A stretch of 64,000 nucleotides of DNA, from assembly GCF_003790525.1 (NCBI RefSeq), contig NZ_CP033633.1; one strand, 5' to 3'. The notes below the pieces were generated by a model. That model saw only the letters and a program-made list of their open reading frames with translations. It did not search any database and was not told where the DNA came from. Below, one piece after another: positions 17,538 to 36,600 of this stretch (the stretch's first letter is position 1; each line of letters begins with the position of its first letter). The translations under genes and the position numbers were made by a program. The stretch is from Escherichia coli. Lineage in GTDB: Bacteria > Pseudomonadota > Gammaproteobacteria > Enterobacterales > Enterobacteriaceae.

Positions 17538-18203
17538 TCAGTGTAACAGGTGATTGCTGTGATCTATGCCCCATTCGGCTTTCGGTAAACCTGAATGCCC
17601 CACATGAAGAATGCGTGACAGCATGTTTCTGCCGCTGCCGTTCAGGCTGCATTCGCGTCCGTGCGCGAGTATAAAACCTTCATCCCGGAATATATCTTCC
17701 ACTTCTGAAGATTCGAGGGATGCCGGATGAATTAATGAAAATGCCACCGGTCTGAGCATTCTGCCCGTGGTGGAAAAGGTGTCTCTGGTACTGTTCAGCT
17801 GCAGGATATGACGTTTACCTGTTTGCGCACGGGAAAGTGTCTCACTCAGCAGCTGGTCGTTCCATGCGCACGTGCCAATCTGCCATCCCAGACTTCTGCA
17901 CGCGGAAAGAGCCGAGCGGAAGCGGTACAGGTCGTATAATGCTGCGTTATTGCCACTTTCCAGCAGTGATTTCAACGTATTTGCTACCGGTATGTCCGTA
18001 TTGGTGGCCAGCAGTTTTCGCAGAGTCGTAAACTCTTCTGCCATTCCTCTGAACTCGCGCATCTGACGGGCAGTGTCAAGCCAGTTCAGCAGGTAACGCC
18101 GGCGACGCCGTTCGTTGTTTATGTTGTCCGGGGCGGTGGAGAGTGCTTCGAGCATATTCTCCAGTAACAGAATGACAGGGTTTTCCTGGGATAGAATGGT
18201 CAT
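17538..18203 (-). CDS. hypothetical protein, positionally TraC-like (IncI transfer regulator)
   Basis: 221 aa; no motif recognised; sits between the NusG-like gene and the pil region. Confidence 0.35.
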   Translation of the reverse strand: MTILSQENPVILLLENMLEALSTAPDNINNERRRRRYLLNWLDTARQMREFRGMAEEFTTLRKLLATNTDIPVANTLKSLLESGNNAALYDLYRFRSALSACRSLGWQIGTCAWNDQLLSETLSRAQTGKRHILQLNSTRDTFSTTGRMLRPVAFSLIHPASLESSEVEDIFRDEGFILAHGRECSLNGSGRNMLSRILHVGHSGLPKAEWGIDHSNHLLH

Positions 18204-18343: not shown

Positions 18344-18985
18344 TCATGTCAACGCTCCGTCATCAGATACCAGGTGCAGGAGCAGGGCGATCCTCGACTC
18401 CGGCAGAGGCTGTGCATCAAGCCGGAGGAGGTACTGGTAACGCGCTTTTGTCAGCCAGAGGGTGGAGGCAGCATCCAGCTCCTCCCTGGCTGCCGGATTG
18501 AGCGCAGGATCCGGGTACACTTTCATTAAAGACTGAACGATATCCTCCCTGACGGTTTTGATTTCACCGGCCATTTTCACGAAGCCCAGAAAGGCACTGT
18601 GACGGCGCAGGTGAGTGAAAGCGTGGCGTTCGGGGTCTGCTTTCAGAAAGAAGTAACCGGGAAACACGGCGTGTATATGACGACGGTAACCACAGACTTT
18701 ATCCGTGCGGCGGACCTTTTTCAGTATCAGGGGTGTCCAGGGAAGGACGTGTTGTTCGGAAAGCCAGGAAAAGAGATGTTCGCGGTTTTTGCCGGCAGGG
18801 ATGTACTGTGCCAGATACCAGTTGCGTTGATGTAATTCACTGATATTCAAAATCCGGAACGCTCCGCGAAAATCGATCCCCGCAGGGGGGCTTCGATGTT
18901 GTTGTGAACGGCGAATACATAAAGCATGTGTCGGAAACAGCGGCTGACCCACGTTCAGCCCGGCCTGCAGTTCTGACAGGCACAT
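18344..18985 (-). CDS. NusG/RfaH-family (NGN domain) transcription antitermination-like protein, TraB-like
   Basis: NWYLAQYIPAGKNREHLFSWLSEQHVLPWTPLILKKV...VFPGYFFLKADPE parallels RfaH SWYLLYCKRGQ...LFPNYLFVEFDPE; ORF track start at 19051 is probably too far upstream. Confidence 0.5.
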   Translation of the reverse strand: MCLSELQAGLNVGQPLFPTHALCIRRSQQHRSPPAGIDFRGAFRILNISELHQRNWYLAQYIPAGKNREHLFSWLSEQHVLPWTPLILKKVRRTDKVCGYRRHIHAVFPGYFFLKADPERHAFTHLRRHSAFLGFVKMAGEIKTVREDIVQSLMKVYPDPALNPAAREELDAASTLWLTKARYQYLLRLDAQPLPESRIALLLHLVSDDGALT

Positions 18986-19124
18986 GCACTGTGCACTCTT
19001 GTTAGCCTTGTGGACGGTTTCGAGGCGGGCGAAAACCGACAACTCCTGCAAACAGGATTAATGGCTGGCAAATATATTACATAAGGATGTATCTGTGGCA
19101 ATAGTGAATATAAGTAGTTGAATA

Positions 19125-19250
19125 GATCGTTATATTTGATAAATAAGCGTATTATGCTGATTTGTGTGCAGTGTCTGGAGGATTAGATCGCTTAAAAATT
19201 TTAGGCGATCTCTTCTACTAAAAATGATGAAAAAAACAGCATAAAAGATC
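19125..19250. promoter_or_regulatory. AT-rich intergenic region with four GATC sites in similar context (candidate Dam-sensitive control region)
   Basis: GATC at 19125, 19186, 19207 and 19247, three of them as AGATCG(C)TT; lies between the NusG-like gene and the rep leader. Confidence 0.3.
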
Positions 19251-19524
19251 GTTTGTGAAATTGTTCATTTTTTGACACAGTTCAAAAAAACGACGCTTTT
19301 TAGGGGGTTAAAGAGGGCAACTGTAACCCTGAGAAATCGTGTCGGCTTTTCAAAGCGGTGGAAAAGGGGTATATTGCGGATCGTTATTCAGTGGCTTTTG
19401 GGATCCTCGCGGTCCGGAAAGCCAGAAAACGGCAGAATGCGCCATAAGGCATTCAGGATGTATGGCAGAAACGACGGCAGTTTGCCGGTGCCGGAAGGCT
19501 GAAAAAAGTTTCAGAAGGCCATAA

Positions 19525-33600: not shown

Positions 33601-36600
33601 ATGAATAAGAATATACGAATTTTACAATTTCTGGTCAGTATACTTTATTCTGTGCAGTCTCATTTTTCTAGTGCGCAAACAATACAACTGAATGGTAATG
33701 GTATACCTGAAAGTATAACCAGGAGTATTACAGGTGTTGATGGAAACGCGGCGCTTAATATCAGCGTGCCGTATAAAACAAGTTATACTCAAAATATACT
33801 ATCTGTTGAAAGCAGTATTAACATCAAAGGAGGAACAAGCAATACATCAATCGGTGGTGCAGGTGTCTACGGTGAAAACTTTACGCTAAATAATAATGGT
33901 AGTGTTTGGGGAGGAGATGGATATAATGGTGGAATTGCTGTTAGTGGCAACAAAATATCTATAAACAATTACAGAAATGTATATGGGGGTAATGGTCTTG
34001 GTGGCTCAGGAAGTAGCGGAGGTGCAGGGTTAAGCGGGGATGATATTATAGTTGATAATTACAGAAGTATATACGGAGGTGATGATGTAGGTGGGACAGG
34101 TGGTTCCGGTGTAACCGGTAGCAATATTACAGTGCATAATTCCGGAGGAATATTGGGCGGTAATGGCGTAAACGGTGGTGATGGTATTAATGGTAGTAAT
34201 CTTTTCATTACTAACGACAACATGATATCTGGAGGATATGGAATAAAACAAGGGGGAGATGCTATTTCTGGAAATCAAATCACTTTGAATAATAACGGTA
34301 TTGTTCAGGGGGGATATGGCCCCGACGGTGGTTGCTCTGTTTATGGAGAAGATATCCATATTAATAATCATGGTAATCTTTCAGGATTATATAATAGCCA
34401 AAAAGATGCTTATAATACATCAATAATTTTTTCTGGCGGGTATAATTCATTAGATATTTATTCAGATTCTGTGATTAATGGTGATATTAAACTAGCTAGT
34501 ATACCTGTTAATGGTACAAATGAATTAATTATTAAGAACATCAATAACGCAACAGCAATTAATGGTGGGCTAATGATTGGGAATGGCTCATCTGTTTATC
34601 TGTCAGGCAAGAACTCCATTTTTAACGGAAATATAAGTATTGATGAAGACGCATCTATGAACCTGTCTGTAGGAAATGCTAATGTTCACGCAAATACTAT
34701 TACATTAAAAAGTGATTCATGGCTTAATATAGACACATCAATTAAGAACTGGACTCAGGACTATTACACATTATTGTCGTCAGACACAGGTATCTCGATC
34801 GCTGATAATAGTCACATTGTACAATACAATGTATTACTGACAGAAGGTGCTGAAAGTTATGTTTATACGTCTTTAAATGACGACGATAACAAACTGATAT
34901 CCATGCTGAGATGGAATAATACAAAAGGGATGGGATATGGAACCTTTAATATAGAAAAAGATGCCACTCTGAACATAGGCGTTTCTCTTTCCGATAATCT
35001 TTCACCTTTATTATATGATGGCTGGGACGGCAAAAGTCTGACAAAATCAGGTAATGGTACTCTTATACTTTCTGCAACAAACAATTATACAGGAAATACA
35101 GAGGTTAAATCTGGCGTATTAATTCTTGCTGCACCTGATGCTCTTGGTCGGACTGAGTATTTATATTTATCCCGTGGCGCAGAACTGGATATGAATGGGT
35201 ATCCTCAGACAATAAGCAAACTACTGACGGCTGCAGGCTCTGTGCTGAACATTCATGGCGGAAGTCTGATACTGAATAATGGAGGAGAATCTGCAGGTAC
35301 TATTGCAGGGGATGGTTCTCTGAACATAAATGGGGGAATGCTTGATATAACGGGTAATAATCGTAATTTTTCCGGTGTTTTTACCGTGAATAAGGGGGCT
35401 CATTTGGCTGTATCCACGGCTGATAATCTGGGGACAGCCTTTGTTGATAACTATGGCACATTAACTCTGAACAGTACATCAGCATGGCAGCTTACCAACA
35501 ATATCAGTGGTTATGGTAATGTTCGCAAGACGGGAGCAGGTGCACTGAACATTAGCGATAACGCAAAATGGAGCGGGATGACAGATATTATTCAGGGGAC
35601 AGTGATACTGGGGAACGCAGATTCACCGGTGATGCTCGGCAGTAACCAGGTCATTGTTGAAGAGCAGGGCAAACTCTCCGGGTTTGGGGGCGTTGCAGGA
35701 AATCTGAGCAATAGTGGTATAGTCGATCTCACTACATATATGCCGGGTAATATACTGACTGTCGGAGGGAATTACACTGGCAGAAATGGACTTATTCTCC
35801 TCCAGACAGAAACAGGTGGTGACAATTCGAAAACAGATCGTCTGGTGATTAAAGGTAATGCCAGTGGCCGTACCCGTGTCGCTGTTACTCAGGCCGGTGG
35901 TTCTGGTGCAGAGACACTTAATGGGATTGAAGTGATTCACGTCAGTGGCAATGCTGATAATGCTGAATTCATTCAGACGGAACGTATTACAGCCGGAGCT
36001 TATGATTACATACTGAAACGTGGTCAGGGGATTAACAGCACTAACTGGTATCTGATTAGCAGAAAAGACATTCCTGTACCACAACCTGAAGCTGTACCGG
36101 AAAACCATGATAATAATTTGCGTCCTGAGGCAGGTAGCTATGTTGCCAGTATTGCTGCTGCAAATAATCTGTTTGTAACGAATCTGTATGAACGACAGGG
36201 ACAGGAGTTGTATATCAGCCACATGACAGGAGAAGAAAATGAAGCAGGTATCTGGATGTATAATAAAGGAAAACATAATCGCTGGCGTGACAACAGTAGT
36301 CAGCTGAGAACCCGGGGGAATAGCTACGTTGTGTTAATAGGGGGAGATATAGCTCAGTGGAGCCTGAATGGTACCGATCGCTGGCATACAGGTATGATGG
36401 CTGGCTATGGTCATAATAATAACAGTACGAATGCCCTGAGCACCGGATACCATTCGGAAGGAAGAATGAATGGATACACAGCGGGTCTTTATGCAACATG
36501 GTATGCCAATGATGAAACACACAATGGTTCTTATCTTGATAGCTGGCTGCAATACAGCTGGTTTGATAATCATATAAATGGAGAACGGCTGCCTGCTGAG

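Follow-up and report, generated by a model that had tools for sequence, protein, structure and literature searches.

Dam methylates GATC sequences in the hosts of the plasmids considered here, and it competes with Lrp at traJ and at sites of the pap type. The control regions of the Lrp/Dam-regulated pap family (pap, sfa, daa, fae, clp and pef) are AT-rich, lie between divergent genes, and carry Lrp sites with a period of about 31 bp. Their GATCs, flanked as in CGATCTTTT and AAAAGATCG, are found inside Lrp-type sites, and two regulatory GATCs, 102 to 103 bp apart, are divided between two triplets of such sites, one to each triplet. In pSLT and F-like plasmids, the promoter of traJ is preceded by an AT-rich region that is activated by Lrp and repressed by Dam. 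This region has a single GATC, which Camacho and Casadesus are reported to have located within an Lrp site (2002/2005). At ilvIH, several phased Lrp sites, including a high-affinity distal site, extend over more than 200 bp upstream of the promoter.

Other Dam-dependent elements, namely oriC, the dnaA promoter, P1 oriR and the ColE1 RNA II promoter, have clustered, phased GATCs at replication-control promoters. SeqA sequestration is known at the dnaA promoter and at oriC. For ColE1, the GATCs of the primer promoter and a hemimethylation block are cited in PMC7736820. In the IncI1 plasmid pESBL-EA11, the interval between the tra regulators and repY contains Hft, a cis-acting region that affects transfer and, about 2-fold, copy number.

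Among the major carriers of ESBL and AmpC resistance genes are IncI1, IncK, IncB/O and IncZ plasmids, whose copy-number control is described as purely post-transcriptional, through an antisense RNA, a leader peptide and a pseudoknot. In the library of papers that was searched, we found none linking GATC, Dam, SeqA or Lrp to the control of rep or traABC in the I-complex. Here we describe a GATC cluster upstream of an I-complex replicon and compare it with these systems.

Results

The locus and its GATC cluster

The window, i.e., the whole stretch of 64,000 nucleotides that was analysed, is 99.6% identical to the E. coli plasmid pE16-3, typed as IncK2/Z, MOBP and MPF_I, and on sequence identity we assign it to the IncK2/Z (I-complex) conjugative plasmids. 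The cluster lies in the intergenic region between traB and repA (Table 1), with GATCs starting at 19125, 19186, 19207, 19247, 19379 and 19402, upstream of the unit composed of antisense RNA, leader peptide and pseudoknot. In the rep control sequence one can make out the leader ORF and a stem-loop whose loop is TTGGCG.

The replicon is chimeric (19524-20558), an I-complex control region (PK-repZ, Inc RNA) being joined to an IncFII-family RepA; this arrangement is known for IncZ. A 197-aa ORF at 24224-24817 on the minus strand, about 3.7 kb downstream of repA, is a ProQ/FinO-family gene in the pE16-3 annotation. FinO-domain proteins of related plasmids are reported to target replication-control RNAs (PMC8053102), and this ORF may be relevant to Inc RNA function here. 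The annotated start, which gives TraB 213 aa, is probably too far upstream. The true start is possibly the TTG at 18850, because the NusG domain starts at residue 55 and the relatives, annotated from that TTG, have 168 aa. The extra 5′ stretch of traB (18850-18985) is homologous to a separate IncI1 segment with a 43-aa ORF (about 2700-2850 of L002, our IncI1 locus), and traA and Hft sit between that segment and traB in IncI1.

Table 1 Features of the traB-repA region in the window (offsets are from the centre of the Lrp-like palindrome)
Feature	Position	Strand	Remarks
traC transfer regulator	17538-18203	-	pE16-3 annotation; no Pfam match
traB (NusG-family transfer regulator)	18344-18985	-	Pfam NusG, E=3e-5, residues 55-153 of 213
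Lrp-like site -92	19053-19067		CAGGATTAATGGCTG, 11/15
GATC site	19125-19128		offset -25.5; context TAGATCGTTAT
Central palindromic Lrp-like site	19145-19159		AAGCGTATTATGCTG, 13/15 to YAGHAWATTWTDCTR
GATC site	19186-19189		offset +35.5; most conserved element of the module
Lrp-like site +61	19206-19220		CGATCTCTTCTACTA, 10/15; contains GATC 19207-19210; pap/pef-type GATC box CGATCT(C/T)TT
Lrp-like site +92	19237-19251		CAGCATAAAAGATCG, 11/15; contains GATC 19247-19250; AAAAGATCG box
Conserved box TTTTTTGACACAGTTCAA	19268-19285		common to lineages A and B
Predicted rep-mRNA promoter, TTTTCA-17-TATATT	19347-19375	+	promoter scan; start predicted
Promoter-proximal GATC pair	19379-19405		19379-19382 and 19402-19405, 23 bp apart; about +1 to +25 of the predicted rep transcript
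Antisense Inc RNA	about 19523-19610	-	CopA-like match, 41 bits, below threshold
I-complex rep translational control region (PK-repZ pseudoknot, leader peptide)	19524-19673	+	Rfam RF01087, 177 bits, E=1e-41
Antisense promoter	19631-19602	-	promoter scan, predicted
repA (IncFII-family RepA, as in IncZ)	19686-20558	+	Pfam IncFII_repA, E=1e-23; pE16-3 annotation

An earlier note on this DNA had reported six GATCs in 19121-19410, four of them in an AT-rich part and three in the context AGATCG(C)TT, and reading of the sequence confirmed all of these counts. The stretch 19121-19260, which holds four of the six sites, has 31% G+C, and the shared context occurs at 19124-19131, 19185-19193 and 19246-19253. 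The density argument that the note built on these sites did not hold at the scale of the window. GATC is rarer than expected window-wide (191 observed versus 273 +/- 17 in dinucleotide-preserving shuffles), the six sites in 281 bp form only the second tightest six-site cluster, and an equally tight one arose somewhere in 21% of simulations in which 191 sites were placed randomly (P=0.21, not significant). The tightest six-site cluster of the window, at 61975-62191 (217 bp), is partly non-coding and adjoins ccdA; further tight clusters sit in ordinary coding DNA. Measured against the composition of the region, there is a clear excess. A first-order Markov model predicts 0.94 GATCs where six are seen (P<2e-4), and a second-order model trained on the region itself predicts 2.8 (P about 0.06). 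No tetramer is more enriched in 19110-19260 than GATC, which reaches 11 times its expected count. By itself, density is weak evidence; at the level of sequence, it is the comparison with relatives that is decisive.

GATCs are kept at fixed offsets in diverged lineages

By blastn, 523 plasmids of the B/O/K/Z types cover the intergenic region at 90-99% identity. IncI1 plasmids align by blastn only from about position 19417 of the window onward, and the GATC clusters of different lineages are not alignable by this method. A metagenome scan with a 17-mer from the rep leader, itself free of GATC, yielded 81 I-complex loci with 72 unique upstream regions, and three separately fetched plasmids were added to these 81 loci. 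At least six diverged lineages can be distinguished: A (K/Z/B/O, including the window), B (IncI1), C, which is another traB/traC-type lineage, and D1-D3, which are MOBP plasmids of about 40 kb with a VirB-type secretion system and no traB/traC. The major lineages are only 36-52% identical to one another in this region, and every lineage has four to seven GATCs at the same place upstream of rep. The cluster of the IncI1 plasmid pESBL-EA11, for instance, is its own, with seven GATCs at the same distance from rep.

We anchored the sequences, without gaps, on a 15-bp palindrome that sits between the first and second GATC of the cluster (n=70 unique sequences), and refer to this palindrome and its GATCs as the module. 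A GATC is found at +35.5 in 65/70 unique sequences and at +56.5/+57.5 in 63/70, in both cases in all lineages; a third, at -25.5/-26.5, is present in 60/70, in lineages A, B and C. The GATC at +34 to +37 is the sole invariant block of at least four columns in the anchored alignment of the six lineages. Together with the one at about +57 it forms a pair, 21 to 22 bp apart, that occurs in all lineages (19186/19207 in the window, 21 bp). When each lineage is taken separately, GATC columns vary less than the columns next to them in A (4/24 versus 131/346, P=0.027) and in C (1/32 versus 104/348, P=3e-4), and are no more conserved than their neighbours in IncI1 (11/32 versus 111/298, P=0.46). Natural IncI1 variants have lost individual GATCs or have a degraded palindrome.

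Other GATCs are placed differently from lineage to lineage. Lineages A, C and D have a GATC pair just after the rep -10, at lineage-specific positions and 10 bp apart in C and D; in IncI1 a single GATC upstream of the rep -35 takes the place of this pair. A K1-type sublineage (L005, 2142-2170, and also L048) has GATCGTA three times in tandem, which puts three extra GATCs inside the module and brings the distance from palindrome to rep -10 to 225 bp. Two replicons, L027 and L068, truncated by IS66 or recombination, have no GATC module. Since they keep the rep promoter, the cluster is dispensable for replication.

That dispensability, the loss of sites among IncI1 variants, the window-wide P of 0.21 and the equally tight clusters in coding DNA are what one would expect if the cluster had no function and were a chance or ancestral-repeat feature of an AT-rich spacer. 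We regard this as highly improbable, given GATCs at identical offsets in six lineages of which the major ones are 36-52% identical, conservation of GATC columns within A and C, and the 11-fold local enrichment. As judged from these alignments, the GATC cluster is part of a deeply conserved control region upstream of I-complex rep.

The cluster is centred on a candidate Lrp site

The consensus sequences of E. coli Lrp are YAGHAWATTWTDCTR and AGAATwwwATTCT (PMC5554404). The homologue of the central palindrome in IncI1, CAGAATATTATTCTG, matches at 15/15 positions, as do the sites of many K/Z/B/O plasmids; in lineages C and D the match is 12-15/15, often with a perfect AGAATwwwATTCT core. The site of the window alone, at 13/15, is not significant, with 11 matches that good in the window versus 8.3 expected. 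Among 25 distinct variants of the site, variation follows the consensus: entropy is 0.83 bit at its degenerate versus 0.35 at its fixed positions (P=0.028), and at positions 4, 12 and 15 all bases seen are consensus-allowed.

Weaker Lrp-like sites, scoring 10-13/15 overall, recur around the palindrome. Lineages A, B, C and D each have a predicted one (10-12/15) at -92 to -94, and all lineages have one at +61/62 and another at +92/+93 (11-13/15); these offsets correspond to a period of about 31 bp. In the window, the GATCs at 19207 and 19247 lie inside the predicted +61 and +92 sites. The same period predicts further sites at about -26 and +35, which are the positions of the GATCs at 19125 and 19186; the sequences there score only about 10/15. 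This arrangement suggests that the cluster is organised around a candidate Lrp site, the central palindrome of the control region.

The sequences flanking the GATCs also resemble those of known Lrp/Dam-controlled regions. The window has boxes CGATCTCTT at 19206-19214 and AAAAGATCG at 19243-19251, and IncI1 has CGATCTTTTAA. A direct check showed the module flanks CGATCTTTT and AAAAGATCG to be the same as those of the boxes upstream of pefB on pSLT, where the two are 103 bp apart; the AAAAGATCG box of the window is identical to one of them. Beyond GATC(G), the flanks diverge between lineages.

The asymmetry of these contexts, GATCG(T/C)T and CGATCT, which extend past the Dam site, could mean that another protein, encoded by the plasmid or some other host factor, binds here and that the GATC core is incidental to Dam; any dimeric regulator could use a 15-bp palindrome. 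We think this quite improbable. The palindrome is an exact match to both Lrp consensus sequences, which were derived independently of each other, the flanks beyond GATC are not shared between lineages, and no plasmid-encoded candidate is common to lineages that differ in Rep type and transfer system. A related identity, iteron-like AGATCGTT repeats for a plasmid protein, finds no support, given the unconserved flanks past GATC(G) and the differing Rep types.

Comparison with pap, traJ and other described regions

The module shares with the pap family its AT-rich setting between divergent genes, the period of about 31 bp in its predicted Lrp sites, the GATCs inside sites predicted to be of the Lrp type, with their flanks, and, presumably, Dam/Lrp competition. 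It differs in having a single strong palindromic consensus site at its centre, in its conserved GATC pair of 21-22 bp instead of 102-103 bp, in its total of four to eight GATCs, and in its neighbours, a replication initiator and transfer regulators in place of fimbrial genes. A Pfam survey of the flanking genes (traB, traC, repA) revealed none of the PapI or PapB type. As both the 102-103-bp pair and adjacent PapI/PapB genes are absent, the module is not a member of the pap family.

With the traJ upstream region the module has in common a conjugative plasmid as carrier and GATCs in AT-rich DNA upstream of a promoter. No resemblance between the two sequences was apparent by eye. The traJ region belongs to another plasmid family and has one GATC, whereas the module is a multi-site array with fixed spacing to the rep promoter and not to a transfer activator. 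ilvIH has phased Lrp sites, as predicted for the module, and differs in having no GATC or Dam component. From these resemblances the module appears to work like the Lrp/Dam regions of pap/pef or traJ. The likeness to Dam-controlled promoters proposed in the earlier note holds and becomes more specific, as across lineages the GATCs are kept in the same placement, around a consensus Lrp site and with pap/pef-type flanks.

Like the Dam/SeqA elements, the module has clustered, phased GATCs at a replication-control promoter; unlike them, it is not at an origin, the I-complex origin lying downstream of rep, and it is organised around an Lrp consensus site. Two GATC pairs of the window, 19186/19207 (21 bp) and 19379/19402 (23 bp), have the spacing of SeqA-type sites, in which two or more GATCs face the same side of the helix within about 31 bp. 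A timing device that dispenses with Lrp, in which SeqA would bind hemimethylated GATC pairs once the fork has passed, transiently sequester the rep promoter region and impose a refractory period, would account for conserved pairs that are 21-23 bp or 10 bp apart (two helical turns or one), for the GATC itself being the most conserved element, and for the two GATCs at the predicted rep start. It would leave unexplained the palindrome, the Lrp-specific pattern of variation, the phased secondary sites and the asymmetric flanks of the GATC boxes, none of which SeqA is known to need. We consider such a device distinctly unlikely.

Two further identities were examined. GATCTCTT, which resembles the oriC 13-mers, might mark a second origin or DNA-unwinding element; this was rejected in view of the origin downstream of rep and of replicons that have no module. 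Hft occupies the same intergenic interval as the module, but in pESBL-EA11 it lies next to traA at 35394-35663 of the record (L002, 2395-2664), and the module (L002, 2927-3075) is about 260 bp closer to rep. Identity of the cluster with Hft was ruled out on this distance; in addition, the Hft papers mention no GATC site, Dam or methylation, and both Hft and traA are absent from the lineage of the window.

The module keeps its distance to the rep promoter

All lineages share the rep -10, GGTATATT. It lies 218-219 bp from the centre of the palindrome in A, B and C, even though the sequence between the two differs, and 197-198 bp from it in D, i.e., two helical turns less. The distance from the module to the transfer genes varies, with about 170-300 bp to traB in A, about 250 bp in C, and more than 550 bp to traA in IncI1, with Hft between. 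Lineages D1-D3 carry the module together with the replicon in VirB-type plasmids that have no traB/traC. The fixed distance to the -10, the GATC pairs after the -10 and the travel of the module into VirB-type plasmids favour rep as the target. In terms of its placement, the module belongs to the replicon rather than to TraB/TraC specifically. Coupling to rep control had been one suggestion of the earlier note. Counted from the rep start, predicted near 19382, the GATCs at 19379 and 19402 are at about +1 and +25, which fits such a link. The other suggestion of the note, a specific tie to the NusG-like and TraC-like genes, finds no support, given the modules of the roughly 40-kb VirB-type plasmids and the variable distance to traB.

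Between the module and the rep promoter, the TTTTTTGACACAGTTCAA box forms a perfect TTGAC-N4-GTCAA palindrome in IncI1 and is operator-like in look. It is kept in replicons without the GATC module (L027).

Evidence from the transfer side

Transcription to the left, towards the transfer regulators, could be the real target of the same Lrp/GATC module, which would then be an analogue of the traJ upstream region, where repression by Dam is a documented precedent. In every complete context examined, the left neighbour is the start of a divergent transfer operon (traB-traC, traA or virB-type). The 92-aa ORF that adjoins the module on the left in lineage D is not TraA-like. A promoter scan of the window predicted a minus-strand promoter-like site at 19101-19074, with an uncertain start near 19067 and the palindrome about 85 bp upstream of that start, and GATCs lie in predicted Lrp-like sites upstream of traB. 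In Salmonella pESI-like megaplasmids that have lost rep, an intact module remains next to traA.

These observations are set against others. The spacing to traB or traA is not conserved, as opposed to that to the rep -10, and the minus-strand promoter prediction is not conserved among relatives. In pESI, which retains the module, deletion of lrp left pilV transcription without significant change. The transposon insertions by which transfer is raised lie in Hft and not in the module, and Tn-seq of the IncI1 plasmid pESBL flagged only the Hft region, not the GATC/Lrp stretch. On balance we judge a transfer-regulator transcript to be an unlikely candidate for the target. Genomic context as such is ambiguous between rep and tra, and since pESI-like plasmids keep the module beside traA after the loss of rep, the linkage of module and rep is not exclusive.

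In the pESI-like plasmids rep is gone through a Tn3-family insertion, and all seven GATCs and the perfect Lrp site are left beside traA. In NZ_CP119981 (L137, 4080-4125), the end of the IncI1 backbone falls exactly between the module and the rep promoter, at a junction that looks like a Tn3-family terminal inverted repeat.

A hairpin lies directly to the left of the GATC module, at 19015-19038 in the window and at about 2862-2895 of L002 in IncI1. According to folds computed for each sequence separately, its loop, which reads CCGCC on the minus and GGCGG on the plus strand, is conserved, and its stems are wholly different between lineages A, B and C; within lineage A, compensatory changes convert CGG/CCG to CAG/CTG. 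In IncI1 the plus-strand loop, TTGGCGG, is the motif of the rep-mRNA stem-loop targeted by Inc RNA. No T-run follows the hairpin at 19015-19038. The hairpin might link transcription on the tra side to copy-number control.

Discussion

The reading we favour, to which we give somewhat less than an even chance, is that the module serves the rep promoter as an upstream region nucleated by Lrp and sensitive to Dam, and that it possibly acts on leftward tra transcription as well. The four GATCs of 19125-19250 lie on an AT-rich platform, about 200 bp long and centred on the palindrome at 19145-19159. Lrp would nucleate at this palindrome and from there extend cooperatively to the sites on either side. 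Its occupancy and the methylation of the GATCs by Dam would oppose each other, as at pap and at traJ of pSLT. Occupancy would then be set by the level of Lrp, i.e., by nutritional state, and by transient hemimethylation after replication or conjugative entry. Placed in a fixed helical register with the rep -10, the Lrp complex may tune transcription of the rep mRNA, adding a layer that would act upstream of the known control by antisense RNA and pseudoknot. The promoter-proximal GATC pair could add direct sensitivity to Dam/SeqA, and the same Lrp complex may influence leftward transcription towards traB-traC.

Several observations speak against this Lrp/Dam model of rep control. For direct control the platform is far away, at 130-255 bp upstream of the promoter, and the site of the window itself, at 13/15, is no better than chance frequency. 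In IncI1 the GATC columns are not extra-conserved and variants lose sites. Replicons L027 and L068 do without the module, the Tn-seq of pESBL flagged Hft only, and pESI-like plasmids keep the module without rep.

A bolder version, which we hold to be improbable, is a pap-like switch upstream of rep. Inherited Lrp/Dam methylation states would split clonal populations in rep transcription, and with it in copy number and in establishment after transfer, and possibly also in transfer competence; the hairpin, whose loop is the kissing-loop motif of Inc RNA and rep mRNA, would tie the control of copy number to tra transcription in the leftward direction.

Taken together, the sequence comparisons suggest methylation- and nutrition-sensitive control of plasmid replication or transfer. 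If the model of Lrp/Dam control is true, I-complex plasmids would have an added transcriptional layer upstream of rep, responsive to nutrition and to replication state, and this might help to account for the reported cross-talk that links transfer with copy number at Hft, next to the module. As it stands, the model would offer a cheap, testable hypothesis for a clinically important group of plasmids. Even if the module had no measurable effect, it would be an unusually well conserved non-coding signature, useful for the annotation of I-complex replicons.
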